A DNA stretch of 64,000 nt from positions 4,681-68,680 of the forward strand of contig CAYNPH010000037.1 of assembly GCA_964399035.1 (NCBI GenBank), in the 5' to 3' direction. Positions 13,929-33,086 of this stretch are shown in pieces (within the stretch, counting starts at the first letter, position 1; each line of letters starts with the position of its first letter). Position numbers and translations under genes: made by a program. Under the pieces are notes generated by a model that searched no databases, was not told the DNA's origin, and was given only the letters and a program-made list of their open reading frames with translations. Source of the DNA: an uncultured Desulfurococcaceae archaeon. Its GTDB lineage: Archaea; Thermoproteota; Thermoprotei_A; Sulfolobales; NBVN01.

Positions 13929-15863
13929 TTGCCCGCGGTCAACTGGAGGAGGTTAGACAGGAAATTCGTCCTCGGCCTTAACTACTGGCCCAGAAAGGCC
14001 GGGCCGAGAATGTGGTTCAGGTGGGACACCGCGTCAATCGCCGAGGATCTAAGGATCATTAAGTCCTTGGGTGTTAGGGCGGTCAGGTTCTTCTTACTCC
14101 TCCAAGACATCGTTAACCCGCATGCCGAGCCCCACTCAGAGATCGTGGGTAGGGTAGCTGAGTTCCTCAAGCTACTGAAGGAGTACGGGCTGGAAGGATT
14201 CGCCACGGTACTCGTGGGGCACATGAGCGGGAGGAACTGGGGCATACCCTTCCAGCCGAGGGAAGGTGTGTATACGCCTTCGTTCTTGAGGAGACTCGAG
14301 AGGTTCCTAGAAGCACTACTGAGCAACATAGGTGGCGAGTACCTAGAGCAGGTTAAGGCGTGGGTGCTCTCAAACGAACTAATGCTTTACGCGAAACCCC
14401 GCAGTACGGAGGAGTACTTAGGCTTTGTGAGCGCGGCGGTGAGGGCCATAAAGTCCCTCGACCCCGGGAAGCCCGTGGGCTTAGGGGACGTGGCGGGCCC
14501 GGGTACTGAGGCCCCTAACGCGGCACGCATATGCGACTACTGCGGGTACCACCTGTACTACTACGACGCCGACCCCGTGAGGCACGGGCTCGCGTACGCG
14601 TTCGCCACGGACCTCTACAGCATGGGCGGCAACGCCCCCGTGATCGCGGAGGAGGTGGGCTTCAGCAGCGCTCAGTTCAGCGACGGCGAGATAAGCAGGT
14701 TCCTTAGATCCGTGCTGGTCAGCATCCTAGCTAACGGTGCTTCAGGCGCCTTCATATGGTGCTTCAGTGACTTCGACCTAGACCATGAGGCGCCCTACCT
14801 GTGGAAGCCCTTCGAACTCCGCTTCGGCGTAGTCGATGCCCAGGGACGGCCGAAGGAGCAGGGCAGGGTGATTAAGGAGTTCTCAAAGCTACTGGAGGAG
14901 CTTGAGGGTCGTGGAATATACCCCGAATTCGAGCCTCTGAAGGACCCGGTAACCATAGTGTACCCGGCCTTCACGTATGACGAAGTAATTGAGTTCGTGG
15001 GGTACGGCACCCAATTAGCGAGGGGCCCGGCACTCGAGGCATACACCGTGCTGAAGACCATGGGCATCAACCCGCTGGTACTGCCGGAGCACATGATTAG
15101 CGAGGCAACCCCGAAACCGGGGCTAGTGATGGTGCCGTCAACACCGACGCTCCTCTCAACAACGTGGAGGGTGCTCGAGAGGCTTGCTAGGGACGGTAGC
15201 ACGCTGTATTATAGCTTCGTAAAGCACGCCCAGCACCCGCACGACTCCCCAACCCACCTCTGGCGTGAGTTATTCGGGGTGATCCCGGACGTGCCCGCAG
15301 GCTCGCCAGGAGCGCCCCCGCCAAGCAAGTTGCTAATCACTTACAGGAGGACGTACGAGTCACTCAGCGTACCTCAGGGAAAGGGGGACGTGCTGGGCTA
15401 CCTATTCAAGCCAGTAGAGGCCAGCGTCATCGGCTTAGACTACCTCGGCAAGCCCCAAATATTCCTGCGGGAAATCGGTGAGGGTCACGCGGTACTCGCA
15501 TCCGTCCCCCTCGAAGCACTGGCGTACGACGCCTTAAGGGCGGACACGTACAGAGGCGAGTTACTGAAAGCCTACGAAGTGCTGGTCAGGGTTGCGGGCA
15601 TTAAACCACGCGTGATTCAGCGTTCCGAGGGCGAGGGGCTGGAGACCGTCGCGTGGGGAGGCGGCGGGGACGAGGTAGCGTTATTCATCATAAACCACTC
15701 ACATAGGCACGTGGAATCAAGCCTAGAACTCGCGGGTGGTGAGGTAAGGTCCTTCGATGTCGTCGGGGCTCTAGGTAATGCACGTGCCCGCCCAGAGGGT
15801 ACGGGTGTGTGGGTTAGCGTGGATGGTAAATCCTCCATAGTGCTCCTTGCTCGGCTTGACTAG
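13929..15863 (+). CDS. Clan GH-A glycoside hydrolase, GH5-like (candidate beta-mannosidase/mannanase)
   Basis: GLNYWPR..MW, VRFF, WVLSNE (acid/base), GYHLY, IAEEVG (nucleophile), FIWCFSD; C-terminal trimerisation-like domain. Confidence 0.82.
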   Translation: MPAVNWRRLDRKFVLGLNYWPRKAGPRMWFRWDTASIAEDLRIIKSLGVRAVRFFLLLQDIVNPHAEPHSEIVGRVAEFLKLLKEYGLEGFATVLVGHMSGRNWGIPFQPREGVYTPSFLRRLERFLEALLSNIGGEYLEQVKAWVLSNELMLYAKPRSTEEYLGFVSAAVRAIKSLDPGKPVGLGDVAGPGTEAPNAARICDYCGYHLYYYDADPVRHGLAYAFATDLYSMGGNAPVIAEEVGFSSAQFSDGEISRFLRSVLVSILANGASGAFIWCFSDFDLDHEAPYLWKPFELRFGVVDAQGRPKEQGRVIKEFSKLLEELEGRGIYPEFEPLKDPVTIVYPAFTYDEVIEFVGYGTQLARGPALEAYTVLKTMGINPLVLPEHMISEATPKPGLVMVPSTPTLLSTTWRVLERLARDGSTLYYSFVKHAQHPHDSPTHLWRELFGVIPDVPAGSPGAPPPSKLLITYRRTYESLSVPQGKGDVLGYLFKPVEASVIGLDYLGKPQIFLREIGEGHAVLASVPLEALAYDALRADTYRGELLKAYEVLVRVAGIKPRVIQRSEGEGLETVAWGGGGDEVALFIINHSHRHVESSLELAGGEVRSFDVVGALGNARARPEGTGVWVSVDGKSSIVLLARLD

Positions 15864-15992
15864 CTACCACGTTAATCGAGCTGTTCTAAATTTTTGAACA
15901 GGCCGTTCGTTCTTAAGCAACGAACGATTACATATATTTTTATTGAATACATTTATCTAGAATGCTTTCAAGTCAAATATGTGGTGTGCGAC

Positions 15993-17306
15993 ATGGTCAC
16001 GCGTGCTAAGGCACTTACGGCGGGACTGATAGTGGTTGGGATAGCACTAATGCTCTTCAGCGTAGGGCTAATGGGCAGTAATGGTGTGGTTGAGGCGGCG
16101 AAGGAACTCACGATAAGCACGGTTAAGCTGGAGTCACTATACCACAACGCAAGCACAGGTAACCTAGACCTGAAGGTCACAGCAACAATAAAGAACCCGT
16201 CCAACGCCGACGTGAGGCTAGGGAACACGAAGTACTTCATGAGCGTCAACGGTGTTGAAGCCTCAAACGTCAATGGCCCGGACGCGATGGTAATACCTGC
16301 CCGGACCTCAAAGACCGTGACCATCACCGCCACGCTGAACCCCAACGATAACGCAACGAGGGAGATGCTCAGGAACCTCTTCATAATTAAGGAAGCGACG
16401 ATAGGGGTGGGCATGGTTGCCCAAGCACCCGTCGCGTGGTTCGGCGTCCTCCAATACGGCAGAGCCACGGTCGAGTTAAGCGGGAACACGACGCAGGAGA
16501 TAGGCCCCATACTGGCGTCCCTAATCAGCGGTGGCCACATGATGGTTGCTGGCAGTAAGAACGCCTTCGACGTGGTAAGCACCGCCTGGTACGTTAACGA
16601 CCATGAGGTAACTGAGGCTCAGCAGGGAGCTGAGGTTACGCTGAAGTTCAGAATCAGGGCTAACTCCGACCTAAACGGGTTTAAGGCGATGGCATGCATC
16701 GTGAGGGACAAAGCCCACGCGTTCGACATCATAGACACGTGTAAGGGGTACGTGCTAAACATGAGGAAAGGTGAGGAGAAGGAACTCTCGCTGTCGTTCG
16801 AGGTGAGGGACGTAAGCACCAACTGCCGCGGCTTCTACCTATCCGCTGGCAAGGAAGGAATGGGTGAGATCGGGGAGAGCACCATTGTTGAGGAGTACTA
16901 CGCGATGCCTAACAAGTACCCGCCAAGGCTTAAGGTCAAGCCCGTGGACATGTTCCTAGTGGTTACTGGGGCGGGGTGGTACGTTAACGGCCAGGAAGTC
17001 ACTAAGGTAAAGAAGAACACGAACGTGGAAGCCAGAGTGTACTTGAGGGCGGTCGCCAATTCACACGATGTGAAAGTAGAGGTCTGCGTTAGGGCCGACT
17101 ACAAGTACGTGCTCGACAAGAACGTCGCGTGCAGGACAGTGAGGGTGAGCCTCGATAAGGGGCAAACAACTACGGTGTCCTTAACCTTCAAGGCGGAGAA
17201 GCACTTCCTGCTCAGAGGGTACTTCATAAAGGTGAAGATCTCGCAGTGGAGCTCATCAACCTGGGAGATGGGCAACCACTACCCGCCGAGGCTTAAGGTC
17301 AGCTAA
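15993..17306 (+). CDS. Membrane-anchored LEA_2/WHy-domain protein with two C-terminal repeat domains
   Basis: Start moved to ATG 15993. N-terminal TM, then LKVTATIKNPSNADVRL..Y..SVNG (LEA_2-like), then two ~115-120-aa repeats from WYVN to YPPRLKV. Confidence 0.65.
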   Translation: MVTRAKALTAGLIVVGIALMLFSVGLMGSNGVVEAAKELTISTVKLESLYHNASTGNLDLKVTATIKNPSNADVRLGNTKYFMSVNGVEASNVNGPDAMVIPARTSKTVTITATLNPNDNATREMLRNLFIIKEATIGVGMVAQAPVAWFGVLQYGRATVELSGNTTQEIGPILASLISGGHMMVAGSKNAFDVVSTAWYVNDHEVTEAQQGAEVTLKFRIRANSDLNGFKAMACIVRDKAHAFDIIDTCKGYVLNMRKGEEKELSLSFEVRDVSTNCRGFYLSAGKEGMGEIGESTIVEEYYAMPNKYPPRLKVKPVDMFLVVTGAGWYVNGQEVTKVKKNTNVEARVYLRAVANSHDVKVEVCVRADYKYVLDKNVACRTVRVSLDKGQTTTVSLTFKAEKHFLLRGYFIKVKISQWSSSTWEMGNHYPPRLKVS

Positions 17307-17461
17307 GACTAGGTGCTAGCGCAAAGCGAGCGAGTTTTTCCCCACTTACGCATCCCCGAGCAGGCATGCATGCGCCTAGCGTGAGGTCAGCGCACCCGAT
17401 TACGGGATGGGCTAGGGGCTCGATGAACAGTTTATAACCATTTACTCAGGAAGGACTCTTA

Positions 17462-19048
17462 GTGAGCGGCATGCTTGACTTAATAATTAAGGGCGGGGTC
17501 ATCATCGACGGTTCCGGCGCGCCCCCATTCAAGGCCGACGTAGGGATCAGCGGGAACACCATAGCTAAGGTCGGGGACCTAAGCGGGGAGCGTTGCGAGG
17601 AGGTAATCGATGCACGCGACCTGGTGGTGGCGCCGGGTTTCATAGACCCGCACAACCACAGCGACCTAAGCATATTTGCGGACCCCGCCGCCAGGAACTA
17701 CGTTGCTCAAGGCGTGACGACGTTAGTTGTGGGGAACTGCGGGTCATCCCCCGCACCGGTAACCGACGTGAATAGGGAGGCGATCCACGAGCTGCTGTGG
17801 GGTGAGGCCTCCAAGTCAGTCCCGATTAAGTGGTCGTCCTTTAGCGAGTACCTCGCGGAGCTCGAGGGGTTGAGGAAGTCGGTGAATGTCGTTGCGTTGG
17901 TTGGGCACGGAACCGTGAGGGCAGCTGTGATGGGTTGCGAGGCCAGGGAAGCGACGGATCGTGAGGTGCGGGAGATGGAGGCCCTCGCCACCGAGGCGAT
18001 GGAGGCTGGCGCGGCCGGGATGTCCCTGGGTCTGATGTATGTTCCTGGAATGTATGCTGGGAGGGAGGAACTGATTAGGCTCGCTAAGGTCGTGGGTAAG
18101 TACGGCGGCGTCCTAGCCACCCACATGAGGAACGAGGGCGCGGGCCTCATAGAGTCGGTGATTGAGGTGATCAGCATAGCTAGGGAGGCGGGGGCAGCGT
18201 TAGAGATATCGCACCTGAAGGCCGCGGGGAGAAGTAACTGGGGCTTAGCTAGGAAAGCGCTAACCCTAATAGAGTACTACGCATGGAGGGGCATGGACGT
18301 AAGCGCCGACGCATACCCGTACGACGCGTCATCAACGTTCCTCTCAGCCCTCCTCCCAGGATGGGTCAGGGCTGGAGGTGCTGAGGCCCTCCTACGCAGG
18401 CTCAAGGAACCCGACACGATCGAGCGCCTAAGGAAGGAGTTGAAGGCCGGATTAATGGGTGAGAGGTTCATCAAGTGGGGGGACGTGATAATATCGTCCT
18501 CGCCATCCATGAGAGAACTCGAGGGCTTAAGCCTGATTGACGCGGCACGCGAGTTAGGCGTAGACCCCCTCTCAGCCGCGGTGGAGGTGCTCACGGCGGA
18601 TAAGGGCTTGACGGAGGTCATCATCAAGGCGATGGATCCTGAGGAAGTCGCTGAAGTCATAGCGCACCCGCTGGTGGCTGTGGGGAGCGACGGCCTAGTG
18701 ATCCCGGAACCTAAGGGGAAGCCCCACCCAAGATCCTACGGCACGTTCCCAAGGGTGCTGGGTAGGTTGGTTAGGGAGCGCAAGGTGATGAGCCTACCTG
18801 AGGCGGTGAGGAAGATGACGTCATTGCCTGCGAGGAAGTTCGGGCTCCTTGACAGGGGCCTCATAAGGCCGGGAATGAAGGCAGACGTAGTCGTGTTTGA
18901 CCCAATAGTAATTAACGACACCGCAACCTACGAGGAACCCGTGAGGAAGCCGGAGGGCGTAGTGCACGTCGTAGTTAACGGTGAGCCGGTACTCGTGAAC
19001 GGCGAGCACACCAGTAGGAAGCCAGGGATGTTAGTGAGGCGTGATTAA
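17462..19048 (+). CDS. N-acyl-D-amino-acid deacylase (D-aminoacylase family amidohydrolase)
   Basis: PGFIDPHNHSD, GNCG, THMRNE, ISHLK, GSDG, HPRSYGTFPRVLG. Confidence 0.9.
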   Translation: MSGMLDLIIKGGVIIDGSGAPPFKADVGISGNTIAKVGDLSGERCEEVIDARDLVVAPGFIDPHNHSDLSIFADPAARNYVAQGVTTLVVGNCGSSPAPVTDVNREAIHELLWGEASKSVPIKWSSFSEYLAELEGLRKSVNVVALVGHGTVRAAVMGCEAREATDREVREMEALATEAMEAGAAGMSLGLMYVPGMYAGREELIRLAKVVGKYGGVLATHMRNEGAGLIESVIEVISIAREAGAALEISHLKAAGRSNWGLARKALTLIEYYAWRGMDVSADAYPYDASSTFLSALLPGWVRAGGAEALLRRLKEPDTIERLRKELKAGLMGERFIKWGDVIISSSPSMRELEGLSLIDAARELGVDPLSAAVEVLTADKGLTEVIIKAMDPEEVAEVIAHPLVAVGSDGLVIPEPKGKPHPRSYGTFPRVLGRLVRERKVMSLPEAVRKMTSLPARKFGLLDRGLIRPGMKADVVVFDPIVINDTATYEEPVRKPEGVVHVVVNGEPVLVNGEHTSRKPGMLVRRD

Positions 19049-19076
19049 GCAGTTGCTTACCACGTCACCGCTGACC

Positions 19077-20120
19077 TCACCACCTGTCAATAACGCTCAC
19101 GTGAATGACCTCACGCCCCTCTGGCCTTCTCGGGGTTCCCAACTGCTCAAGGTACTTAATCATGAATACTTCATCGCTCTCAACACGCTCCGCCCCAGCG
19201 CGTTTCAAGGCGTTCAGCGCCGGGTGGTCATCAGGTAAGTCAACCGTCATGCTGGACAGCCCCTTACCCAGTACCCTCTCCGCAACACGTCTTAACGCGC
19301 TAACACAACTCACGTCGTCAATACACGGTAGTTCCTTAAGGTAAGCGTCCTCCCTGCCCTTCATGCCTCTTAAGTCACTCTCCCTCCACGTAGTTAACGC
19401 GTAGTAAGCTACGACGTTACCTGAACGTGACTCACATACCTCTATGTCCTCAGGGTTGCTGTGGAACCACGTGTAGTGGGGGTTCCGCTTAAGCACCCTA
19501 CCCCAGTACTTATCGGACCTCCTAACAACGTAGGCATGAGTTCTCGAGAACTCCTCATACAATTCGCTCAGCGGTTTTGGGTCCCTCGGCACGTACCAGC
19601 TCAGCGACTCACTACCCTCACCAACGCCTAGCAACGTCCTTAAGCACTCCTCGCCACATGAGAGCTTCGCAGGCTTCCATACCCCCTCGAACCCCAGCTT
19701 AAGGTAGATCCTGTGGGCAACGCTTCCCGCACCTGCGAAGAGCGCAGTAGCACTTAAACCAAGCACTTCCTTAACGTGGTTTAACATGTAACTCAGGAGT
19801 AGCTTAGCTAGACCGCGGCCCCTGAACTGCGGCGAGGTGCCCACGTTAGCGATGCCGGCAACCCTAAGTGTCTCTCCACTTCCCAGCGTGAGGTCCCTAA
19901 TGACTACCTGGACGGCGCTCGCGGGCTCCTCGCCCACGTAGGCTATGTAGGCCTTCCCCTCACCCACGCCCTCATCCTCCTCAGCGATTAAGCGCATGCG
20001 CTCAGGCGTCATGCCCGCGTAGCGGAAGGAGTTGAATGCGGAATTAATCACCGCCACTAAGTCCTCGGAGCAATCGGTACTTAGCGGCGAGCACACCCTC
20101 ACTTCAACCATCGCTCCCAA
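19077..20120 (-). CDS. Tandem-domain GNAT N-acetyltransferase (Eis-like)
   Basis: AGIANVGTSPQFRGRGLAKLLL (acetyl-CoA motif A), HRIYLKLGF, second GNAT-like half. Confidence 0.82.
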   Translation of the reverse strand: MGAMVEVRVCSPLSTDCSEDLVAVINSAFNSFRYAGMTPERMRLIAEEDEGVGEGKAYIAYVGEEPASAVQVVIRDLTLGSGETLRVAGIANVGTSPQFRGRGLAKLLLSYMLNHVKEVLGLSATALFAGAGSVAHRIYLKLGFEGVWKPAKLSCGEECLRTLLGVGEGSESLSWYVPRDPKPLSELYEEFSRTHAYVVRRSDKYWGRVLKRNPHYTWFHSNPEDIEVCESRSGNVVAYYALTTWRESDLRGMKGREDAYLKELPCIDDVSCVSALRRVAERVLGKGLSSMTVDLPDDHPALNALKRAGAERVESDEVFMIKYLEQLGTPRRPEGREVIHVSVIDRW

Positions 20121-20185
20121 GCACCCTCATGAGATCCTCACTGCTGACCCCTAATTACGGTGAGGGCCTTTACTTAGGGGCTGGG

Positions 20186-20200
20186 TTAGTAAGTTACTAA
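20186..20200. promoter_or_regulatory. Perfect 15-bp palindrome TTAGTAA-G-TTACTAA in the divergent GNAT/dppD promoter (candidate operator)
   Basis: Read directly; the core GTAA(G/C)TTAC recurs twice at 23435-23513. Confidence 0.6.
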
Positions 20201-20292: not shown

Positions 20293-21246
20293 TTGACGTT
20301 GCTTGAGGTCAAGGACCTGCACGTGCATTACAGGACGCTGAAGGGGGTAGTCAGGGCTGTTGAGGGAGTCACCTTCGAGTTAGGGAGGGGTGAGGCTTTA
20401 GGAATAGGTGGTGAGTCCGGGTGCGGTAAGTCGACCCTTGCTTTCGCGCTCATGAAGCTGGTCCCTCCTCCCGGCAGGATCGTTAAGGGTAAGGTCATCC
20501 TAGACGGGAAGGACTTGACGGGGCTACCGGAGGACACCCTTAGGAAGGAAGTGCGGTGGAAGGAAGTAAGCATGGTTTTCCAGGGAGCGATGAACGCGTT
20601 ATGCCCGGTCTTCACCATAGGTGATCAGCTTGCTGGACCGCTAATGTATCATCAGGGGATGAGCAGGAAGGAAGCGTTGGAGAGAGCCGCTAGGGCCCTA
20701 GAGATGGTTGGGCTGCATCCCGACATGCTGAGGAGGTACCCTCACGAGTTGTCGGGGGGTCAGAAGCAGAGGGTGGTGATAGCTATGGCGATACTGCTGA
20801 ATCCTAAGCTAATAATAGCTGACGAGCCCACCACTGCCCTCGACGTGATCGTGCAGGCGCAGATAATGAACCTATTCAAGAAACTTAAGAAGGAGCTGTC
20901 ATCATCCCTTGTCTTCATAACGCACGACCTCAGCCTCATAGCCGACATAGCGGATAAGGTAGCGATAATGTACGGGGGTAAGTTAGTGGAGTTCGGGCCA
21001 GCGGAGGAGGTCTTCATAGAGCCGAAGCACCCCTACACTCACTTACTCCTGTCAAGCATACCTAGGATAGACAGGAGGACTAAGCTAACGTGGATCCCCG
21101 GGACCCCGCCCGATCTAAGGAACCCGCCGCCTGGGTGTAGGTTCTGGCCCAGGTGCCCGCACGCCATGGACATATGTAAGAGGGAGGAACCACCCATAGT
21201 GGAGTTAGGGCGGGGTCATAGGGTGCTCTGCCACCTATACGCTTGA
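20293..21246 (+). CDS. dppD: Oligopeptide/oligosaccharide ABC transporter ATPase (DppD/OppD)
   Basis: GESGCGKST, LSGGQKQR, IADEPTT, C-terminal GCRFWPRC..CH Fe-S domain. Confidence 0.93.
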   Translation: MTLLEVKDLHVHYRTLKGVVRAVEGVTFELGRGEALGIGGESGCGKSTLAFALMKLVPPPGRIVKGKVILDGKDLTGLPEDTLRKEVRWKEVSMVFQGAMNALCPVFTIGDQLAGPLMYHQGMSRKEALERAARALEMVGLHPDMLRRYPHELSGGQKQRVVIAMAILLNPKLIIADEPTTALDVIVQAQIMNLFKKLKKELSSSLVFITHDLSLIADIADKVAIMYGGKLVEFGPAEEVFIEPKHPYTHLLLSSIPRIDRRTKLTWIPGTPPDLRNPPPGCRFWPRCPHAMDICKREEPPIVELGRGHRVLCHLYA

Positions 21247-21247
21247 G

Positions 21248-22321
21248 GTGATGCACGTGCCCACCCCAGGCAAGGAATTGCTGGTAGTGGAGAACCTGAA
21301 GAAGTGGTTCCCCGTCAGAAGGTCGCTAGCTGACGTCCTAGCCGGGAGGGAAAGGAGGTACGTGAGGGCAGTTGACGGCATCTCGTTCACCGTGGTGTGC
21401 GGCGAGGTATTCTGCTTGGTGGGCGAGTCGGGTTGCGGGAAGACGACGACGGGCAAGCTCATCGTGAGGGCCTTAAGACCCACCTCAGGCAGGATGCTGT
21501 ACAGGGTTAGCGAGGAAGCTATTAACGAGTTGAGGGCCCTCCACGTGCGCTTGGAGGACAACTCATTCATCGATTTAGCAGGTCGCTTCAGAGGTAAGGC
21601 AGATAAGTTGCTAAGGCGTGAAGTGCAGATGATCCTTCAGGACCCGTACGGGTCGCTCAACCCAAGGCAAACCATACGCGACGTGCTTGAAGAGCCCCTA
21701 ATAATCCACGGCGTCGGGAGATCCAGGGACGAGCGCCTCGAACTAGTTGTGAAGGCGCTTGAGGACGTCAAGCTAACTCCGCCTGAGGAGTTCCTCGACA
21801 GGTACCCGCACCAGCTCTCGGGAGGGCAGAGGCAGAGAGTCAACATAGCTAGGGCCCTCCTCCTCAAGCCCAAGTTAATAGTTGCTGACGAGCCCGTCTC
21901 GATGCTCGACGTCTCCATAAGGGCTGAGATCCTCCAGCTCATGCTGGAACTCAGGGACGTTAAGAACCTGACGTACGTCTTCATAACGCATGACTTAGCC
22001 GTAGCTAACAACATCTGCGACAGGATAGCCGTGATGTACCTGGGCAAGATAGTTGAGTTAGGCCCCGCTACCGAAGTAATACGTAATCCCCTGCACCCCT
22101 ACACGAAGGCATTAATAGCTGCGATACCGGAGCCGGATCCACGGAAAGGTAGGGCAATAAGGGAGGTACCCATCAAGGGTGAGGTCCCGAACGCCGTGAA
22201 CGTGCCTCCTGGGTGCAGGCTTCACCCGAGGTGCCCTTACGCTGAGGAGCGCTGCAGGCGTGAGGAGCCGGAGCTTAAGGACGTGGGCGGCGGGCACCTA
22301 GTTGCGTGCCATCTATATTAA
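21248..22321 (+). CDS. dppF: Oligopeptide/oligosaccharide ABC transporter ATPase (DppF/OppF)
   Basis: GESGCGKTT, LSGGQRQR, VADEPVS, GCRLHPRC..CH. Confidence 0.93.
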   Translation: MMHVPTPGKELLVVENLKKWFPVRRSLADVLAGRERRYVRAVDGISFTVVCGEVFCLVGESGCGKTTTGKLIVRALRPTSGRMLYRVSEEAINELRALHVRLEDNSFIDLAGRFRGKADKLLRREVQMILQDPYGSLNPRQTIRDVLEEPLIIHGVGRSRDERLELVVKALEDVKLTPPEEFLDRYPHQLSGGQRQRVNIARALLLKPKLIVADEPVSMLDVSIRAEILQLMLELRDVKNLTYVFITHDLAVANNICDRIAVMYLGKIVELGPATEVIRNPLHPYTKALIAAIPEPDPRKGRAIREVPIKGEVPNAVNVPPGCRLHPRCPYAEERCRREEPELKDVGGGHLVACHLY

Positions 22322-23434: not shown

Positions 23435-23513
23435 TGTAAGTTACATGGTGATCGAAGAATAATAAAGTTAGTAGTTAGGTGCTTCGGTAACGTATACTGT
23501 TAGTAACTTACTT
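23435..23513. promoter_or_regulatory. Two palindromes TGTAA-G-TTACA (23435-23445) and AGTAA-C-TTACT (23502-23512) in the regulator/SBP divergent promoter
   Basis: Read directly; same core as the 20186 palindrome. Confidence 0.55.
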
Positions 23514-23570: not shown

Positions 23571-25541
23571 GTGGGGGTAAATATTATGCGTAGGTACCTC
23601 CCACCGATTCTAGCGTTGGTGTTGGTAGCATTAACCGTAGCCGCGCCCTTGGCAATGACGGTCAACGCCCAGGGAGTTGAGGTGGTTCTCGCCACACCAG
23701 CGTGGAAGACGCTGAACCCGCTAACCTACAGGACCGTGTATGACGACATTGTGCTGGGGAAGATATACGACACCCTAGTCAGGAAGTGGGTTGACGGAGT
23801 AACTATTAAGCCTGAGATAGCGGCTAGCTGGGAGTTCAAGCACGAAGGCAACAACAAGGTGCTGATATTCCACCTAAGGAAGGACGTGGTGTGGCATGAT
23901 GGTCAGCCACTCACCGCTGATGACGTGGTCTACACCATTAACTTAGTGAGGAGCAAGCCTCAGGTCTACATAGCGCCCAGCAAGTACGTTTATGAGGGCC
24001 TCCTCAACGTGACGGAGCCCGACAAGTACACGGTTGAGCTGACGTATGACGCGACGAAGGCCGCGGCGGACAGGTTCCTGCTCGAGGCCTTCACGACGCT
24101 CTACATAGTGCCGAAGCATATCTGGGAGAAGCTACCGGACACCACGGCCTCCCTGAGCAAGCCTGAGGACATGGTTGGTTGCGGTCCCTTCAAGGTTGTT
24201 GAGGTTAAGCCAGGGCAGTACGTGAAGCTAGTGGCTTTCGATAAGTTCTTCAGGGGCAAGCCGGAGGTTGACTCACTCCTCATTAAGGTGGTCAGCGACA
24301 GGAACACCTTCGCGATGATGGTTAACACTGGTGAGGTTGACGCAGGGTACTTCTACTTCTTCGGCAAGCTCCTTGAGTCCCTGCAGAAGACCGTTGCTAA
24401 CAACCCCAACATTAAGATCTACAGGTGCCCGTCAACGTCAATACACATGCTAGTCCTGAACATTCACAAGCCGTTCTTCCAGAACGTGGAGTTCAGGAAG
24501 GCGATAGCGTACGCCATCAACGTCACTGCCATAGTGACTAAGTACTACGGCAAGGACGGGGCGATACTGGGCACGATGGGCTTCCTAGGGCCAAGGTTCG
24601 GCAACTACTCATACTACGTGCCTAAGGAGGAGGTCTACCCGTACAACCCCGACCTAGCTAAGAAGATACTCGACAAGCTGGGGTATAAGGACGTCAACGG
24701 CGATGGCTGGAGGGAGACGCCGGACGGCAAGCCACTAGTGCTCGACCTAATAACTAGGGCGCCGGGTGACTCCTTCTTCAGGGACGCCATAGCTGACGAG
24801 ATAGCTAACTACTTAGCTAAGGTAGGGATTAAGGTGCAGGTAGAGAAGCTGGCCAGCTCCGTCTACTGGTCAAGATGGGGCAAGATGTCCTATGACATGG
24901 CTATCGTGGGTTACGTGCCTCACAGCCCGCTAGCCCTCAGCTGGTTCACCACCGGCGACCCCGGCAACGTCGTCAAGTACAGCAACCCAGTGTATGACGC
25001 CCTAGTAAGTAAGTTCGTCACTAGCGGCGACCCGAAGTACGCGTGGGAGGCTGAGAAGATACTGATAAAGGAGTGCTTCCTCATAGGCCTCTACCACCCG
25101 ATAGTCGCCACGCCGTACAGGGTCGACAAGTTCAAGGACTGGATAGCGAGCCCCGTAGGCTTGACCGCGGGCTTCTGGTCCGTGCTGGGATCTAAGCTAG
25201 TGCTAGGCAAGGAGGGCCCTGTAGAGTTCAGCGCGCAGGCACTAATTAAGAACTGCCGCCTACCCACTAAGGAAGAGTTAGTGAAGCTCAACCCGGACCT
25301 AGCCGGCACGACACCCACCGTAACGACCGTGACGAAGACCTCCGCAACAACCATAGTTAAGTCCGGCACCACCACGGTCTACAAGACCGCCACCGTAACC
25401 GAGACGAAGAAGGAGGTCAGCACCACGACAGTCACTACGACCGTCGCTGGCGGTACTAACACAGGCCTCATCGCCGGAGCGATAATAGTGGGCATAATAA
25501 TAGGTCTGATAATAGGTTTCGCAGCTTTCAGGAGGAAGTGA
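23571..25541 (+). CDS. ABC transporter substrate-binding protein, family 5 (Opp/Dpp), with Thr-rich linker and C-terminal TM anchor
   Basis: TLNP, IYDTLV, PEIAASW, FHLRKDVVWHDGQPLTADDVVYT, GCGPF, YPYNPDLAKKIL. Confidence 0.93.
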   Translation: MGVNIMRRYLPPILALVLVALTVAAPLAMTVNAQGVEVVLATPAWKTLNPLTYRTVYDDIVLGKIYDTLVRKWVDGVTIKPEIAASWEFKHEGNNKVLIFHLRKDVVWHDGQPLTADDVVYTINLVRSKPQVYIAPSKYVYEGLLNVTEPDKYTVELTYDATKAAADRFLLEAFTTLYIVPKHIWEKLPDTTASLSKPEDMVGCGPFKVVEVKPGQYVKLVAFDKFFRGKPEVDSLLIKVVSDRNTFAMMVNTGEVDAGYFYFFGKLLESLQKTVANNPNIKIYRCPSTSIHMLVLNIHKPFFQNVEFRKAIAYAINVTAIVTKYYGKDGAILGTMGFLGPRFGNYSYYVPKEEVYPYNPDLAKKILDKLGYKDVNGDGWRETPDGKPLVLDLITRAPGDSFFRDAIADEIANYLAKVGIKVQVEKLASSVYWSRWGKMSYDMAIVGYVPHSPLALSWFTTGDPGNVVKYSNPVYDALVSKFVTSGDPKYAWEAEKILIKECFLIGLYHPIVATPYRVDKFKDWIASPVGLTAGFWSVLGSKLVLGKEGPVEFSAQALIKNCRLPTKEELVKLNPDLAGTTPTVTTVTKTSATTIVKSGTTTVYKTATVTETKKEVSTTTVTTTVAGGTNTGLIAGAIIVGIIIGLIIGFAAFRRK

Positions 25542-25649: not shown

Positions 25650-26648
25650 GTGAGCAACATGAGCAGTAGTAGGGGTATGCTGGGGTACGTCCTCGCTAAG
25701 CTACTGCACAGGCTAGCCACACTTGTCTTCATAATGGCGCTCATCTACATATTAATGCGCCTCGCCCCCGGAACCCCTTTCGACCAGTACTTAGCTATGG
25801 GTAAGTTAACTAGGGAACAGTACGAGTACCTCCTCATGAAGTGGGGTTACAAGGACAACATACTCGTGGGTCTAGGTAAGGTTATTTACGGGATGTTTAC
25901 CCTCTCCCTATTCAAGATGAACTCACCCGTGTGGAACCAACCCATCCTTGAGCTAGTCACTACTAGGCTAATCAATACGTTGGGCCTCATAATCTCAGCC
26001 TACCTCCTCGGCTCCATGCTCGGCATGCTTCTGGGGCTGTACACCGCGAGGAAGCACGGCACCAGTGGTGAGGCAGTGATTCTCTGGGGAGCCCTTGTCT
26101 ACAGGTCCTTACCGGTCTTCTGGTTGGGTATGATATTCCTGTACTTCCTCTCCTACATAGGCGGGTTCTTCCCCTTCACCGCCACCTCAGAGATAAGTCC
26201 CTCCAATATCTTCCACTACGTTGTTGACTGGTTCTGGCATAGCATACTCCCCCTAATATGTCTCTCGAAGCTCGCCGCGGTCGGTTACCTCTTCACAATA
26301 AGGAACATGATCATGGACGAGATGTCCAACGACTACGTAACCACGTTGAGGGCCGTGGGGTACAGCGAGCACGTCATCCTCGAGAGGTACGTGATGAGGC
26401 ACATAATGCCTCCCGTCATCACCATGATGGCGATAGATATAGGCTTCCTCTTCGGCGGTGCCGTAGTTACTGAGACCGTATTCAACTACCCCGGTATGGG
26501 GCGCTTGATCTACGATGCGATATGGAGTAAGGACTACCCGGTCGTTCTGGCAGCGTTCTACATAGTCGCGTTAGCCGTGATTATTTCCGTCACCATAGCT
26601 GAGATAATGTACGCGTACCTAGACCCGAGGATAAGGGCTACGAGGTGA
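25650..26648 (+). CDS. dppB: ABC transporter permease (DppB/OppB)
   Basis: RLAPGTP, EAA-like loop DYVTTLRAVG, ETVFNYPGMG, DYPVV, YAYLDPRI. Confidence 0.92.
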   Translation: MSNMSSSRGMLGYVLAKLLHRLATLVFIMALIYILMRLAPGTPFDQYLAMGKLTREQYEYLLMKWGYKDNILVGLGKVIYGMFTLSLFKMNSPVWNQPILELVTTRLINTLGLIISAYLLGSMLGMLLGLYTARKHGTSGEAVILWGALVYRSLPVFWLGMIFLYFLSYIGGFFPFTATSEISPSNIFHYVVDWFWHSILPLICLSKLAAVGYLFTIRNMIMDEMSNDYVTTLRAVGYSEHVILERYVMRHIMPPVITMMAIDIGFLFGGAVVTETVFNYPGMGRLIYDAIWSKDYPVVLAAFYIVALAVIISVTIAEIMYAYLDPRIRATR

Positions 26649-26651
26649 TGC

Positions 26652-27611
26652 GTGATGGTTGACAAAGTGCGTGGTGTGGTTGCTGGGCACTCGAGGGTTA
26701 GTGGGCGGGGCCTCGCTCACGCCCTCTCAAGGCTTGAGGACCCGCTGTACTACGTCCTCCACCATCGCATGGGGGTCGTTGGCGTCGCCATACTGACCTT
26801 CATCGCGATAATGGCGTTATTCCCGCAGCTCTTCACGCCCTACGCACCCACGCAGATATTCGAGCAGAACTTCGCGCCCCCATCCTCCCAGCACCTCTGC
26901 GGCACTGACTATGAAGGGAAGGACGTGTGGACCCAGATAATATACGGGGCTAGGGCATCCCTGCTCGTGGGATTCATAGCCACAATACTCACCATAGCTA
27001 TAGGCGGCTTCATAGGAGTGCTCTCAGGGTACTACGGAGGCGTCCTTGATAACCTCTTAATGTTCTTCAGCGACTCACTCATGCTCCTACCCTCACTCCT
27101 CCTACTGATAGTGTTCGCGACCATGTTCAGGAACGGTTTCATAGTCGCTAAGCTCACGGGCGTGGGGAGATGGACCCTCTGGGACACCGCCATAGTGATC
27201 GCGTTAATCGCGTGGCCATCGACCGCCAGGATGGTTAGGGCGCAGGTAATGCAGCTTAAGAACAGACCGTACGTGGAGGCAATAAGGATAATCGGGGCCG
27301 GGCCCTGGAGGATAATGTTCAAGCACATACTACCCCAGACAACCCCACTACTCCTCTCAAGGATAACCGTGCTGACACCGGGCTTCATGGTAACCGCAGC
27401 CTCCCTCTCCTTCCTTGGTCTAGGGGATCCCAACACCCCGGACTGGGGATACGTGATGTACACTGCCTACAAGAACATGTTCACGGTAGTCACGGAGAAT
27501 AACTGGTTATGGATAGTGCTCCCCGGGTTACTCCTAGCGATTACCGTGATGGGGTTCATATGTGTTGGTGAGGCAATAGACGATTACCTGAACCCGAAGC
27601 GCAGGAGGTGA
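26652..27611 (+). CDS. dppC: ABC transporter permease (DppC/OppC)
   Basis: HLCGTDYEGKD..IYGARASL, EAIRIIGA, KHILP, LSFLGLG, PDWG. Confidence 0.92.
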   Translation: MMVDKVRGVVAGHSRVSGRGLAHALSRLEDPLYYVLHHRMGVVGVAILTFIAIMALFPQLFTPYAPTQIFEQNFAPPSSQHLCGTDYEGKDVWTQIIYGARASLLVGFIATILTIAIGGFIGVLSGYYGGVLDNLLMFFSDSLMLLPSLLLLIVFATMFRNGFIVAKLTGVGRWTLWDTAIVIALIAWPSTARMVRAQVMQLKNRPYVEAIRIIGAGPWRIMFKHILPQTTPLLLSRITVLTPGFMVTAASLSFLGLGDPNTPDWGYVMYTAYKNMFTVVTENNWLWIVLPGLLLAITVMGFICVGEAIDDYLNPKRRR

Positions 27612-27617
27612 GCTCAC

Positions 27618-28328
27618 ATGGCGGAGGAGGTTAAGCAGGCGCGGCACCGCATAACTGGGAAGGCAGTGGTAGCGCTACACGTCATCACCGCAGCAGCCAT
27701 CGCGGCCGCGGCAGTAACTACGGGGGGAGCGACCCTTCAGGGGGCAGCGTTCATGGTGTTCGCGGCGCTACTGAACTGCGCGGCTGCCGTAGCCAGCGCT
27801 AAGAGGGCGTACGGAACAGCCGCTATCGTGGCAGGGATGCAGCTAATATCATCACCCTTAGCGATCCTCACCAGCCCCTACTACGTCATTATTTCGTTGC
27901 TGTTGCTGGCCTCAACGTCGCTTTCAGCCTACCTAGCAATAACTGAGGGAAGTTCGGAGGCGATGGGGAGGTACGTAAGGCTCGGTGCGGCAGCGTACCT
28001 GGTGGGTGTGGGGATAGCGTTGGCGGTGGCGGCATTGACGTGTCAGCCGTCGCCGGACCTGTTCAGGGTTGCTGCCTCCATGGCTGAACGCAGGTTAATT
28101 ACGTGGCGCGTGCTGGGAGTTCTGGCTGGCTTAGCCCACATGCTCGCGGCCCGCTACGTGCTTAAGGGTAGGCTAATCCATTACCTCCTGTGCATCGGGA
28201 TGTTCGTGTCCCCCATTTTCCTTCTAGCTCAGGCCCTCCAAGCACCGCCTGCCGTGGTGTGGGCTCAGGTAGTGGTGGTGCTCGAGGCATATGCCCTAGG
28301 GTTCAACGCGGCTAGGGGGGCCGTCTAG
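27618..28328 (+). CDS. Hypothetical multi-pass membrane protein
   Basis: About 7-8 hydrophobic segments; operonic between the permease and the kinase. Confidence 0.65.
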   Translation: MAEEVKQARHRITGKAVVALHVITAAAIAAAAVTTGGATLQGAAFMVFAALLNCAAAVASAKRAYGTAAIVAGMQLISSPLAILTSPYYVIISLLLLASTSLSAYLAITEGSSEAMGRYVRLGAAAYLVGVGIALAVAALTCQPSPDLFRVAASMAERRLITWRVLGVLAGLAHMLAARYVLKGRLIHYLLCIGMFVSPIFLLAQALQAPPAVVWAQVVVVLEAYALGFNAARGAV

Positions 28329-28329
28329 G

Positions 28330-29289
28330 ATGGGAACCGCACCACGCTTCGTTGTAGGGGTGGACTGTGGTGCCACAAGCACTAAGGCAACAGCCTTCGA
28401 AGTACTTGGCGATGGATCGCTAAAGCCCCTAGCAAGGGTCGTCTGCGGCCCCTCGAACCCCGCCTCCACGGATAGGGCTGTCGGGCAGGCTAACATAATG
28501 GAGTGCTTAAGGAAGCTCGCGGAGGAGACTGGCTTAAGACGCTTCGACCTAGTTGCGTTCTCAGCGGCTGGGACGGGACACGGAGCGTGGAGGAACTACT
28601 ACGTGGAGGCGGTGCTTAACACGGGATTAGCTGATAAGGTGATGGTCTTCGAGGACTACCTAGTAGCGCATTACGCGTGCTTCGAAGGGGGGCCAGGGAT
28701 AGTTGCGATATCGGGGACCGGTAGCTCAGCCTATGGGGTCGGTAGGGGCGGGACGGAAGTGAAGGTCGGTGGGTGGGGCCACCTAATAGATGACGGCGGG
28801 AGCGCATGGCACGCGGGCAAGGAGGGCATTAAGGCCGCCCTCAAGTATCTGGATGGCCGGGGACAGTACACGTCACTGTTAGGCAGGTTGGTGCATTACC
28901 TAGGACTACGTGACTTAGGGGACGTAATAACTAAGGTGTACGGGGATAAAGCGCCCAAGACGCTAATAGCGGGATTCGCTAGGTACGTGGTTGAGGAGGC
29001 CATTAAAGGAGATGATGTTGCTGTCAACATTATTGAGGAGGAAGCCCGTGAAATAGCGGAACTCCTCCTCGCAGCAAGGAAAATGCTTAACGATAATGAA
29101 CTACCGCTGTGTGTTGTTGGGGGCTTCTATGAGGGTGCGGGGGAGTTGCTACAACCGCACTTGCTCAAGGAGTTAGGAAATCATGGAATTAGTAAGGACT
29201 CCCTCGTAGAGGCTTCACTAAGCATGGAGGAGGCGGCGGTTAAGCTATCGCTGAGCAAAATCTTGGTGTCAAGCGCAGTTAGCCCGTAG
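28330..29289 (+). CDS. BadF/BadG-type sugar kinase (N-acetylglucosamine kinase-like)
   Basis: GVDCGATST phosphate-1 motif, ISGTGS, GGWGHLIDDGGS. Confidence 0.85.
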   Translation: MGTAPRFVVGVDCGATSTKATAFEVLGDGSLKPLARVVCGPSNPASTDRAVGQANIMECLRKLAEETGLRRFDLVAFSAAGTGHGAWRNYYVEAVLNTGLADKVMVFEDYLVAHYACFEGGPGIVAISGTGSSAYGVGRGGTEVKVGGWGHLIDDGGSAWHAGKEGIKAALKYLDGRGQYTSLLGRLVHYLGLRDLGDVITKVYGDKAPKTLIAGFARYVVEEAIKGDDVAVNIIEEEAREIAELLLAARKMLNDNELPLCVVGGFYEGAGELLQPHLLKELGNHGISKDSLVEASLSMEEAAVKLSLSKILVSSAVSP

Positions 29290-29422
29290 CCAATCAATAT
29301 AATGCCATGGGAATCCTTGCGTGGGTATTGGGGCAAGGTCAAGATAGCACCCCGTCAGCATGGCTCCACGTGCTTAACGGAGGAGTTATTTTCACCGCGC
29401 CTAAACTGTCTCGGTGAGCTAG

Positions 29423-31930
29423 TTGAGTAATGATCAGCACCGCAAACTCCACTTACTCGGCCATAGCCACTTAGATGTTGCTTGGCTCTGGCCCACCAGT
29501 GAAGCGAGGGAAGTCTTCGTTAAGACTGTTGCGAACGTTCTTAAGCTCATGAGTAAGTACCCTGGCTTCACATTCGCTCAGAGCACGGCCCTCTACTACG
29601 ACTGGTTAAGGTCGCTTAAGCCGGAACTCCTGGAGGAGGTTAAGCGCAGGGTTCGTGAGGGGAGGTGGGAGGTCGTTGGCGGGTCGTGGGTTGAGAGTGA
29701 CTGCATACTCCCGTCCGGTGAGGGCCTAGTTAGGCAGTTCCTGTACGGTAAGAGGTTCCTTAAGCGTGTGTTGGGTGTTGACGTGAGGGTGGCTTGGTTC
29801 CCCGACAGCTTCGGCTTCCCTGCTTCACTCCCCCAAATACTTCGGGGATGCGGGATCAAGTACTTCGTCACGCAGAAGCTTAATTGGAACGACACCGTCA
29901 TGTTCCCCTACAACCTATTCAAGTGGTTGTCCCCTGACGGCTCCGAGGTCCTCGCCTACCAGACCGTGGGTGGGTACTGGGGCAACCCGGGTGAGGTGTG
30001 GAAGGTCGCCACGTACTTCCTAGCCCTACACGCAAGGCACGGTATCGGGGACCTACTCCTCATATACGGTTACGGCGACCACGGATGCGGCCCCAAGGAA
30101 GAGGAGGTTGCCGCGGCCGAAGCCCTCGTGAGGGAAGTACCGCCCGAACTTAAGGCCTTAGGGGTTAGTGAGGCTAGGCACTCACGTGCTGAGGACTACT
30201 TAAGGATGGTGGAGGAAGCGCACGGCGACCGCATACCTAAGTACGTTGGTGAACTCTACCTCCAATTCCACCGCGGAACCTACACCTCGCAAGCAAGGAT
30301 TAAGGAACTCGTAAAGGAGTGCGAACATTTACTGGAGACCCTCGAGAAGCTACTCACGCTAAGGTACCTAGCCTCAGGGAAGCCGTATGATAGGCGGGAG
30401 GTCGAGTCCCTCTGGAGGGAGGTCCTCACAGCCCACTTCCACGACGTGCTCGCCGGCTCACTATCGAAAACGCCCTACACGGAGTTCCTGAATAGGCTCT
30501 CGAAGCTACGGAAGAACCTCCACGCTAGGGTACGCGCGCTAATAGCGGAACTCCTTAACGTGCCTAACGCTGAGGACGGTAAGGGAAGCTTAGCGGTGTT
30601 CAACCCGTTGCCGAGGGAGGTACGTACCTACGTTGAGTTGCCGGGCCGCGGACTAGTTAGGGTGAGGGCGCCACCGCTAGCGCTGGTTGCCGCGGAGCCC
30701 GAGGAGGTTGAGGCGGGCGCGGAAGTGGTTGATGGTGGGGATCACCTGATCCTGAGGAACGGGTTGGTGGAGGTTAGGGTGAGTAAGGAGACGGGTGAGG
30801 TGAGGTCCCTGAAGCTCCTAGCTAATGGTCAAGGCAAGGAGTTCTTGGGAGGCCGAGGCGTGGGGTTCGAGGTGTATGACGACACACCACGCCTCGGCAG
30901 GGCGACCGCCGGAACCATCGAGAAGTTCGTTGACTACGCCTTCGACTGCTGGGAACTCTACCACCTCCAGAGGCTGGACGGGGTCAAGTACCGGAGGCTA
31001 ACGAAGCCCGTCAAGGTGGAGGTCACGGAGCGAGGACCTTCAAGGGCGTCCGTGATGATCGAGTACGCGTACAGGGATGAGGGCGGCGAGGCCAGGTTAA
31101 GGCACCACATACGCGTGTACGCCGGGGAACCGTGGGTCGAGGGCGTCGTCGAAATTGAGTGGGCACTCACCCATCGCCTGCTGAAGCTCGTGGCCGACCT
31201 AAGCATGTGGGCAGAAAACATCGTCGTCGGGCAACCCTACGGCCACGCAGTAAGGAGGAACCCAGCATCACCGTACTCCACCCTCTACGACAGGGCGATG
31301 TGGGAGGCATGGTTCAACGGCTGGATCGACTACAGCAACGGGAAAGCCGGACTAGCGCTGATCTGCGGCACCCGCTTCGGGTATGACGTCATGGGTAAGA
31401 CCCTCAGGCTAACCCTACTGCGGGGACCGAGATTCCCTCCCGAAGGCGCTATCGGCGTCCCGTGGACTCCCGAACTCCTTAAGGCACAAGACCCGGTCGA
31501 GTCAGGGCGCTACCGAATAACCTACTACCTCTACCCACATGAAGGCGACTGGGTCGCGGGTAAGGTACCTACGAAGGCCGAGGAACTACTGAATAGACCG
31601 TACGTCACGGTGGTGCGGGAACCCAAGGTCAGGGAGGTTACCCCCATAACGATTGAGGCTGGTGACGTTGAGGTTCCGGTGCTGAAGGTCTGCGAGGATC
31701 GGGACGACTGCGTGGTGTTGAGGGCCTTCAACCCGTACGGCCGTAGCGGCGTCGTGAGCGTGGGTCTAAGGGGTGCTGACGTGGTTAAGGCTGAGGAAAC
31801 CAACATGCTTGAGGAGAGCTTGAGCGAGGTACCCGTGAGTAACAACGGTAACCTCACCTTAAAGGTGAGGCCATTTAAGGTCGCCACATTTAAACTCACG
31901 GTCAAACATGACGGGACGCGATCAGTGTGA
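29423..31930 (+). CDS. Alpha-mannosidase, GH38
   Basis: HSHLDVAWLW (Zn), WEVVGGSWVE, RQFLYG, WFPDSFG (nucleophile), YGYGDHG, FHRGTYTSQ, HFHDVLAG. Confidence 0.95.
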   Translation: MSNDQHRKLHLLGHSHLDVAWLWPTSEAREVFVKTVANVLKLMSKYPGFTFAQSTALYYDWLRSLKPELLEEVKRRVREGRWEVVGGSWVESDCILPSGEGLVRQFLYGKRFLKRVLGVDVRVAWFPDSFGFPASLPQILRGCGIKYFVTQKLNWNDTVMFPYNLFKWLSPDGSEVLAYQTVGGYWGNPGEVWKVATYFLALHARHGIGDLLLIYGYGDHGCGPKEEEVAAAEALVREVPPELKALGVSEARHSRAEDYLRMVEEAHGDRIPKYVGELYLQFHRGTYTSQARIKELVKECEHLLETLEKLLTLRYLASGKPYDRREVESLWREVLTAHFHDVLAGSLSKTPYTEFLNRLSKLRKNLHARVRALIAELLNVPNAEDGKGSLAVFNPLPREVRTYVELPGRGLVRVRAPPLALVAAEPEEVEAGAEVVDGGDHLILRNGLVEVRVSKETGEVRSLKLLANGQGKEFLGGRGVGFEVYDDTPRLGRATAGTIEKFVDYAFDCWELYHLQRLDGVKYRRLTKPVKVEVTERGPSRASVMIEYAYRDEGGEARLRHHIRVYAGEPWVEGVVEIEWALTHRLLKLVADLSMWAENIVVGQPYGHAVRRNPASPYSTLYDRAMWEAWFNGWIDYSNGKAGLALICGTRFGYDVMGKTLRLTLLRGPRFPPEGAIGVPWTPELLKAQDPVESGRYRITYYLYPHEGDWVAGKVPTKAEELLNRPYVTVVREPKVREVTPITIEAGDVEVPVLKVCEDRDDCVVLRAFNPYGRSGVVSVGLRGADVVKAEETNMLEESLSEVPVSNNGNLTLKVRPFKVATFKLTVKHDGTRSV

Positions 31931-33072: not shown

Positions 33073-33086
33073 CAAGGGTGCCTCAA

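Follow-up and report, generated by a model that had tools for sequence, protein, structure and literature searches.

The stretch of DNA considered here, positions 13929-31930 (~18 kb) of a 64-kb sequence (the window), contains a conserved unit some 12 kb long, within 19.1-31.9 kb, in which genes for an Opp/Dpp-type importer are grouped with genes for a BadF-type sugar kinase, a transcription regulator, a GNAT acetyltransferase and an alpha-mannosidase of glycoside hydrolase (GH) family 38. It is probable that the substrate of the importer contains sugar and that the GH38 enzyme and the kinase act on it. More tentatively, with confidence a little short of even, we interpret the 19.1-31.9 kb segment as a regulated unit that imports and catabolizes a glycan fragment made up of mannose and, very probably, also N-acetylhexosamine (HexNAc). 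Such a fragment may be an oligosaccharide or, alternatively, an N-glycan-type glycopeptide. An earlier sequence-only reading had proposed N-glycan or glycopeptide utilization by the whole stretch; we regard the outcome as an annotation that is plausible and supported in part, not as a surprise, and we treat the N-glycan or glycopeptide interpretation as a partly supported hypothesis.

Genes were identified from an open reading frame (ORF) listing and from Pfam and NCBIfam scans; the domain scan of the window covered ORFs of at least 150 amino acids (aa), which is the scope of all absences of enzymes and gene families from the window given below. All genes named in the sequence-only reading exist at the coordinates given for them, and its list was complete except for one ORF, 15894-17306, which encodes a membrane-anchored protein of 437 aa. 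The synteny survey rests on 12 look-ups of contigs encoding a given protein, and the fetched loci, 172 in all, carry labels (L001-L011, L091, L092, L171, L172 and so on). A scan of genome contigs anchored on the binding protein of the importer was swamped by paralogues of 27–34% identity and gained one orthologue (L011), while the corresponding scan of metagenome contigs gained two (L091 and L092). The source of the sequence is an uncultured archaeon of Desulfurococcales type present in hydrothermal vent metagenomes, and only DNA metagenome runs matched the window, with no RNA runs found to carry it.

The importer is encoded entirely on the plus strand. It comprises two ABC ATPases with ABC_tran and oligo_HPY domains, one OppD-like (20293-21246; L007 has an orthologue of 77% identity in this position) and one OppF-like (21248-22321; 71% identical orthologue in L007), a family-5 solute-binding protein (SBP) anchored at the cell surface (23571-25541; SBP_bac_5, 1.6e-75), and two permeases assigned by Pfam, one OppB-like (25650-26648; BPD_transp_1; 42–97% identical in orthologous loci) and one OppC-like (26652-27611; BPD_transp_1 and OppC_N). 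A family-5 SBP, two permeases of which one has OppC_N, and two oligo_HPY ATPases identify an importer of the Opp/Dpp (PepT) type. The binding protein starts with a signal sequence and ends in a C-terminal transmembrane anchor preceded by a Thr-rich linker, and its orthologues are 40–97% identical to it. Its best match in the PDB is a mannoside binder from Thermotoga maritima (4pfu, 1.5e-34), with peptide binders at 7e-32 to 1e-30, and its nearest NCBIfam model is an oligopeptide binder, far under the cut-off of that model.

Directly after the second permease lies a gene for a polytopic membrane protein of 236 aa (27618-28328, plus strand), which has no Pfam or NCBIfam match and only five relatives among 1.84 billion representative proteins. 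Homologues in which the motif PPD..R...TWR.LG is conserved occupy the same position in L006 (14153-14737), L007 (14011-14712), L008 (13758-14477), L172 (13722-14435) and L009 (14141-14896), and in L171, too, a homologue follows the second permease; for the small membrane protein of L010 the relationship is uncertain and at best that of a short relative. In hhalign, the versions from Thermoprotei and Thermococcales align with a probability of 98%. A fold search was dropped, the AlphaFold2 (AF2) model being too poor (pLDDT 59.5).

The kinase gene (28330-29289, plus strand; BcrAD_BadFG, 7.5e-30) begins 2 nt past the end of the membrane-protein gene and encodes an ATP-dependent sugar kinase of the BadF/ASKHA type, with motifs that can be seen in its sequence. 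Its closest PDB matches are an N-acetylmuramic acid (MurNAc)/N-acetylglucosamine (GlcNAc) kinase (8zo3, 2.4e-31) and the Sulfolobus tokodaii hexokinase (2e2n, 5e-26), the latter described by the title of its report as having "broad substrate specificity" (Nishimasu 2006, cited in PMC9550789). Membership in BadF/ASKHA is clear, and the protein falls outside the NagK equivalog NF046058, scoring 89.3 bits where 370 are required; the predicted substrate is a hexose or a HexNAc.

In L006, L007, L008, L009, L010, L171 and L172, where binding proteins are 40–80% identical to that of the window, the gene order is again binding protein, two permeases, small membrane protein and kinase, except that L009 has no kinase and that the membrane protein of L010 is uncertain. 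The kinase is the next gene after the 236-aa homologue in L006, L007, L008 and L172, and not in L009 or L171. Altogether the module is found in eight or nine archaeal lineages, in Thermoprotei and in Thermococcales (Thermococcus and Pyrococcus). In seven of the eight orthologous lineages, representing two phyla, the kinase either comes next after the permeases and small membrane protein or is the immediate neighbor of the binding protein. In line with the sequence-only reading, this BadF-type kinase beside the transporter genes supports a coupling of the importer to sugar catabolism over plain peptide use. An ordinary oligopeptide importer with unrelated kinase, GH38 and GH5-like neighbors, for which the Opp/Dpp architecture, the similar scores of peptide and sugar binders and the far-below-cut-off oligopeptide-binder model could be cited, is very improbable given this adjacency and the recurrence of glycoside hydrolases and HexNAc-phosphate enzymes around the module.

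Conservation extends in part to the surrounding genes. The GNAT is kept in six lineages, the regulator in four and the ATPase pair in two; GNAT homologues flank the orthologous transporter in L007, L008, L010, L171 and L172, and regulator orthologues lie beside the binding protein in L006, L007 and L010. Of the synteny expected in other Thermoprotei, that of the transporter-kinase core is kept, and that of the GH5-like gene, the amidohydrolase and the overlooked LEA_2-like gene (all described below) is not. The binding protein and permeases are 54–66% identical to those of L008 (Pyrococcus kukulkanii CP010835) and L172 (Thermococcus sp. M39), a high value across phyla, and horizontal transfer of the module between Thermoprotei and Thermococcales is suggested.

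Two divergent promoters of the segment share a palindrome, AGTAA(G/C)TTACT. The Eis-like GNAT acetyltransferase (19077-20120, minus strand; Acetyltransf_9) diverges from the ATPase genes, and the intervening region contains the 11-bp operator candidate AGTAAGTTACT (20188-20198), with exact copies in L011, L091 and L007. A regulator combining AbrB/MazE and PhoU domains (22380-23378, minus strand; Pfam) diverges from the binding-protein operon, and the region between them contains the operator candidates GTAAGTTAC (23436-23444) and the palindrome AGTAACTTACT (23502-23512). The positions of the palindromes at 20188 and 23502, and of the candidates at 23436-23512 as a pair, are conserved in L011, L091, L007 and L006, and the palindrome is rare: unrelated loci totaling 2.1 Mb contain five matches. 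We consider it a candidate operator, to which the AbrB-PhoU regulator would bind. Three copies with one mismatch also occur at 33381-34027, inside a radical-SAM ORF (32925-34829) in a stretch of lower GC content.

The predicted alpha-mannosidase belongs to GH38. The gene at 29423-31930 (plus strand) encodes all four GH38 Pfam domains (PF01074, 1.2e-70, with PF09261, PF07748 and PF17677), and its product shows HSHLD as metal motif and WFPDSFG as motif of the nucleophile. The protein aligns over residues 5-826 with Ams1 (6lz1, 1.8e-90), compared with 1e-15 to 1e-20 for bacterial GH38s, which places it in the cytosolic Ams1-like clade; against the mannosylglycerate hydrolase model (MngB, NF007331) it reaches 136.5 bits where 1138 are required, and only over residues 6-406. 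As the sequence-only reading had noted, neither this enzyme nor the GH5-like hydrolase has a signal peptide: the catalytic domains start at residues 8-13, and because the chains open directly with these domains both glycosidases are cytoplasmic. In the window and in L091 (88% identity) the GH38 gene adjoins the module on the downstream side, after the kinase; in L006/L092 (57% identity) it does so upstream, beside the regulator. In L091 the spacer between kinase and GH38 (10469-11170) measures ~700 nt and contains an antisense ORF of 152 aa.

The second glycosidase, a GH5-like hydrolase of 644 aa (13929-15863, plus strand), is a genuine member of clan GH-A with a three-domain, GH42-type architecture. 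It has no Pfam match even at E<=1 and no NCBIfam match, but homologues at 34–36% identity do match PF00150 (Cellulase) or PF26410 (GH5_mannosidase); because its own profile match fails where those of its relatives succeed, GH5 membership holds only by transitivity and fold. Searched with phmmer, the PDB gives Op5Man5, an exo-beta-1,4-mannosidase (7bob, 2.4e-17), first, then a GH5_18 enzyme (7lqx, 4.6e-7) and 6gvb (0.04). All conserved catalytic residues of the clan are present: when 32 homologues are aligned, R53, H98, N149-E150 (acid/base), H208, Y210, E242 (nucleophile) and W277 do not vary, and E242 aligns with E281 of Op5Man5, its experimentally assigned nucleophile (PMC8233224). The AF2 model (pLDDT 93) is a TIM barrel, for which Foldseek ranks Op5Man5 first (1.6e-30), then the GH164 beta-mannosidase Bs164 and then GH42 beta-galactosidases. 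A cytoplasmic exo-beta-mannosidase is therefore the probable, predicted function, and the beta-mannosidase call of the sequence-only reading stands insofar as the nearest structures are exo-beta-mannosidases and the clan residues are complete. An identity as GH5_18 (the single-domain, dimeric BlGH5_18/CaMan5_18 clade) was rejected in view of the three-domain architecture and the 4.6e-7 match to 7lqx.

The GH5-like gene is an independent, independently inherited stand-alone gene that merely lies nearby in the window. The family is widespread in Thermoprotei; in five relatives (L001/L002, L003, L004, L005) the gene is alone among housekeeping genes, in the complete genome CP072660.1 it is ~290 kb from the transporter, and in the metagenome-assembled genome GCA_054043105.1 gene and transporter are on separate contigs. 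The sequence-only reading, which had held that unlinked genes in relatives would count against it, fails here for the GH5-like gene. No copy of the palindrome lies upstream of it, and a PNP/metallophosphatase setting as its ancestral neighborhood was rejected, as there are no conserved neighbors. As a rough estimate, assuming a genome of ~1.7 Mb with ~15 GH genes, the chance of finding one GH gene at most 16 kb from the transporter is about a quarter. The enzyme could nevertheless supply the predicted beta-mannosidase step of the pathway.

These results bear on the extent of the locus. The proposal of a single 18-kb locus is upheld for 19.1-31.9 kb, which is backed by conserved synteny and a common candidate operator; for 13.9-19.0 kb there is only adjacency, and the 18-kb stretch is not supported as one conserved unit.

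We propose the following model for the segment. The surface-anchored family-5 binding protein would capture a glycan fragment or glycopeptide, and the Opp-type importer, consisting of the two permeases, the two ATPases and possibly the 236-aa membrane protein, would bring it into the cell. There the cytoplasmic Ams1-like GH38 would trim alpha-linked mannose, the GH5-like enzyme, as an independently inherited gene product, could remove beta-mannose, and the BadF-type kinase would phosphorylate the released hexose and/or HexNAc. The Eis-like GNAT may modify an amino group carried by the substrate or by one of the products, and the AbrB-PhoU regulator would control the two divergent promoters via AGTAA(G/C)TTACT. 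Gene identities, the cytoplasmic or surface placement of the proteins, the synteny of the core and the common palindrome are observed; the ligand, the kinase substrate, the role of the GNAT and the binding of the palindrome by the regulator are those that we infer.

Indirect support comes from the accessory genes of orthologous loci. Those without GH38 (L007-L010, L171, L172) recurrently carry a peptidase M14, a ceramidase-like amidase, a GNAT and a DUF4015/GHL protein, the last being glycosidase-like, 900–1050 aa long and equipped with a BPL_N-like domain; GFO_IDH_MocA and AP_endonuc_2 genes are also recurrent. Several loci carry a NagA-like amidohydrolase, a NagS-like SIS_2 protein related to SCO4393 (9eol, 2.7e-43) and GlmD/GlmS-like SIS genes; NagS is a GlcNAc-6-phosphate dehydratase (PMC12680351). 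A GH84 beta-N-acetylglucosaminidase occurs once, in L009 (1.9e-87), and a GH130 protein, of the beta-mannoside phosphorylase type, once, in L010; the latter is assigned by Pfam (61 bits), and no match was found for it in the PDB. Pooled over loci, the accessory genes cover catabolism of peptide, beta-GlcNAc, beta-mannose, alpha-mannose and HexNAc-6-phosphate, although no one locus has the full set, and the pooled set fits well with a glycopeptide of the structure peptide-GlcNAc-GlcNAc-Man(beta)-Man(alpha). The occurrence of two unrelated beta-mannoside-cleaving families near the same transporter, GH5-like in the window and GH130 in L010, is the strongest indirect support for the N-glycan idea.

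Several observations weigh against this interpretation of the segment. Sugar and peptide binders score nearly equally against the binding protein, so the PDB ranking was rejected as a guide to ligand class. No enzyme for the GlcNAc-GlcNAc or GlcNAc-Asn bond (GH20, GH84, GH3, GH18, GH85, ENGase or PNGase) was found in the window, nor were NagA, NagB or phosphomannose isomerase. Of the eight or nine lineages, only two have the GH38 gene linked to the module, and its arrangement differs between them; a gap of 134 nt (29289-29423) separates it from the kinase in the window, with a TATA-like TTATTTT ~36 nt before its start that suggests a promoter of its own, and no palindrome lies upstream of it. 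Homologues of the M14, ceramidase-like, GHL and other accessory genes that accompany the orthologous transporters are absent from the window, and because it has none of these genes the window version may serve a different or narrower substrate. Finally, DUF4015/GHL, GFO_IDH_MocA, AP_endonuc_2 and GNAT are not accounted for by the N-glycan model. On balance, the coupling of importer and kinase, the adjacent GH38 and the pooled accessory set speak for the N-glycan or glycopeptide reading, while the unlinked GH5-like gene and the lack of a chitobiose-core enzyme in the window speak against it.

A simpler substrate would be an alpha-mannoside without amino sugar, either alpha-manno-oligosaccharides derived from exopolysaccharide or mannosylglycerate, a compatible solute that hyperthermophiles in the vicinity would release, which the GH38 would hydrolyze and the kinase convert to mannose-6-phosphate. 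GH38 is the sole glycosidase demonstrably tied to the module in the window, its only NCBIfam match is the mannosylglycerate hydrolase model, and a homologue (P0224) is named mannosylglycerate hydrolase by its source. The resemblance of the kinase to the hexokinase with "broad substrate specificity" in its title, the absence of HexNAc catabolic genes from the window and the hydrothermal vent origin of the sample would also fit. However, the NCBIfam match covers the N-terminal half only, at 136 of 1138 bits, and the protein is much nearer to the Ams1 type (1.8e-90); binding proteins of 41–73% identity sit in loci full of HexNAc-6-phosphate and peptide-processing genes, and the conserved GNAT is left without a role. 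We regard this substrate as unlikely.

A HexNAc conjugate other than an N-glycan, such as chito-oligosaccharides, fragments of peptidoglycan or pseudomurein, or a galactosamine/N-acetylgalactosamine polymer, with GH38 as a late, lineage-specific addition that serves a role of its own, seems to us similarly improbable. This would explain why six orthologous loci have M14, a ceramidase-like amidase and GNAT, most of them also DUF4015/GHL and several NagA-, NagS- or GlmD-like genes, and none has GH38. The top match of the kinase is a MurNAc/GlcNAc kinase, and the D-aminoacylase family, to which the nearby amidohydrolase belongs, acts on N-acyl-D-amino acids, fitting D-Glu-containing muropeptides. 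Left unexplained, however, are the mannose-specific enzymes beside the module in three lineages (GH38 twice, GH130 once), and no lytic transglycosylase, muramidase, MurQ or amidase family was recognized. Moreover, binding proteins from loci of the GH38 type and of the M14 type share 73–80% identity with that of the window, which argues for one ligand class. A peptidoglycan-fragment reading of the conserved cluster was ranked below a mannose-containing glycan, as GH38 and GH130 would stay unexplained.

The mannose-containing glycan fragment that we favor admits a bolder extension, which we consider doubtful: the module may be the core of an undescribed archaeal salvage system for glycopeptides or N-glycans, equipped with lineage-specific toolkits (GH38, GH130, GH84, M14, ceramidase-like amidase, and NagS-, NagA- and GlmD-like enzymes) and exchanged between Thermococcales and Thermoprotei. 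Such a system would re-import fragments shed by the S-layer glycoproteins of the cell itself or of its neighbors, or by vent fauna, and would break them down in the cytoplasm. If true, it would be an archaeal counterpart of the eukaryotic cytosolic catabolism of free oligosaccharides by Ams1/Man2C1.

Two further genes occupy the 13.9-19.0 kb side. The overlooked ORF (15894-17306, plus strand; probable start 15993) encodes the N-terminally membrane-anchored protein of 437 aa, which has a borderline LEA_2 match and two internal repeats of ~130 aa, each with YPPRLKV at its end; no relative was found in the PDB, and none of the 172 fetched loci contains a homologue. The second gene (17462-19048, plus strand) encodes an amidohydrolase of the D-aminoacylase family (Amidohydro_3), identified by its PDB matches and by its metal-ligand motifs. 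Its matches include 1m7j (1.3e-95), the N-acyl-D-Glu deacylase 3gip (4e-92) and the sugar de-N-acetylase OngB (9kb1, 1.4e-71), and the Alcaligenes faecalis-type ligands HxH, Cys, His, His and Asp are present in the motifs PHNHSD, GNCG, THMR, SHLK and GSDG. Against the NCBIfam model PRK09061 it scores 217.6, below the cut-off of 340. It adjoins the cluster only in genomes of 90–97% identity (L011, L091). Neither gene has the palindrome upstream, and neither protein can be assigned to the pathway.

The flanks of the stretch contain purine-salvage, cofactor and transport genes, and no further carbohydrate genes were found elsewhere in the window. Two divergent gene sets of the xanthine-dehydrogenase/CO-dehydrogenase family (40785-44570, minus strand, and 45245-48478, plus strand) adjoin an amidohydrolase gene (49039-50397) and, with the purine genes at 797-4300, may form a purine-catabolism neighborhood. 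A segment of ~5 kb (32925-38000), encoding a radical SAM protein of 634 aa and a Peripla_BP_2/FecCD/ABC_tran transporter, is missing from L091, which is 88–95% identical to the window; there (compare L091 13649-14854) a MoaA-like gene runs directly into the creatininase-like gene that begins at 38018 in the window.

The archaeal module itself seems to be uncharacterized and rare, and limited literature searches turned up no account of archaea catabolizing N-glycans or glycopeptides. Confirmation of the ligand would offer an entry point to the recycling or scavenging of glycoprotein glycans by hyperthermophilic archaea, as well as functions for the unannotated membrane protein family, the GH5-like family of Thermoprotei and the AbrB-PhoU regulator; the thermostable mannosidases are of possible practical use.

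Among known systems, the closest functional analogue is the actinobacterial locus of Cutibacterium acnes and Bifidobacterium, in which GH38, GH5_18, GH20/GH18 and an ABC transporter trim Man3GlcNAc2 in the cytoplasm, and whose GH38 is related to Ams1 at 30% identity (PMC6160142). As there, an ABC importer and GH38 and GH5-type genes without signal peptides share one neighborhood in the window, and the GH38 is Ams1-related. Unlike the actinobacterial locus, the window has a transporter of the Opp/Dpp type with a family-5 SBP and not a classical sugar ABC transporter, its GH5-like enzyme is three-domain and Op5Man5-like and not single-domain GH5_18, co-location of alpha- and beta-mannosidase genes is not conserved, and GH20, GH18 and GH85 are absent. 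It adds the AbrB-PhoU regulator, the GNAT, the BadF kinase and the novel membrane protein.

The binding protein of the transporter finds its best-scoring solved relatives (1.5e-34 to 8e-30) among Opp-type oligosaccharide importers, namely the mannoside binders TM1223/TM1226 of T. maritima (4pft, 4pfu) and the chitooligosaccharide binder of Vibrio (1zty). These systems have the same components as the window (a family-5 SBP, two permeases and two oligo_HPY ATPases), and Opp-type binding proteins of thermophiles are cited as sugar binders (Nanavati 2006, cited in PMC3047682). The window differs in the C-terminal anchor of its binding protein and in the extra 236-aa protein; the similarity is distant, with peptide binders near equal. 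More closely related are the orthologous clusters of P. kukulkanii (CP010835), Thermococcus sp. M39 and Desulfurococcaceae MEX13E (CP072660), which match the window in binding protein, permeases, membrane protein, kinase and GNAT with 31–66% identity, but contain M14, ceramidase-like, DUF4015/GHL, NagA-, NagS- and GlmD-like genes in place of GH38.

The individual enzymes have counterparts of their own. The GH5-like protein shares its three-domain architecture with Op5Man5, a GH42-type trimer and its best match in both sequence and fold, although identity in the structural alignment is only 17–18%; Op5Man5 is a GH5 exo-beta-1,4-mannosidase acting on beta-1,4-manno-oligosaccharides from plant mannan (PMC8233224). 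The kinase is of the same ASKHA BadF/NagK type as the S. tokodaii ATP-hexokinase and the MurNAc/GlcNAc kinase, but differs from NagK in scoring 89 bits against the equivalog cut-off of 370. For the GH38, the closest solved clade is that of Ams1/Man2C1 (6lz1, 5jm0), both of which are cytosolic; unlike these, the archaeal enzyme is built without the N-terminal extension of ~280 residues.

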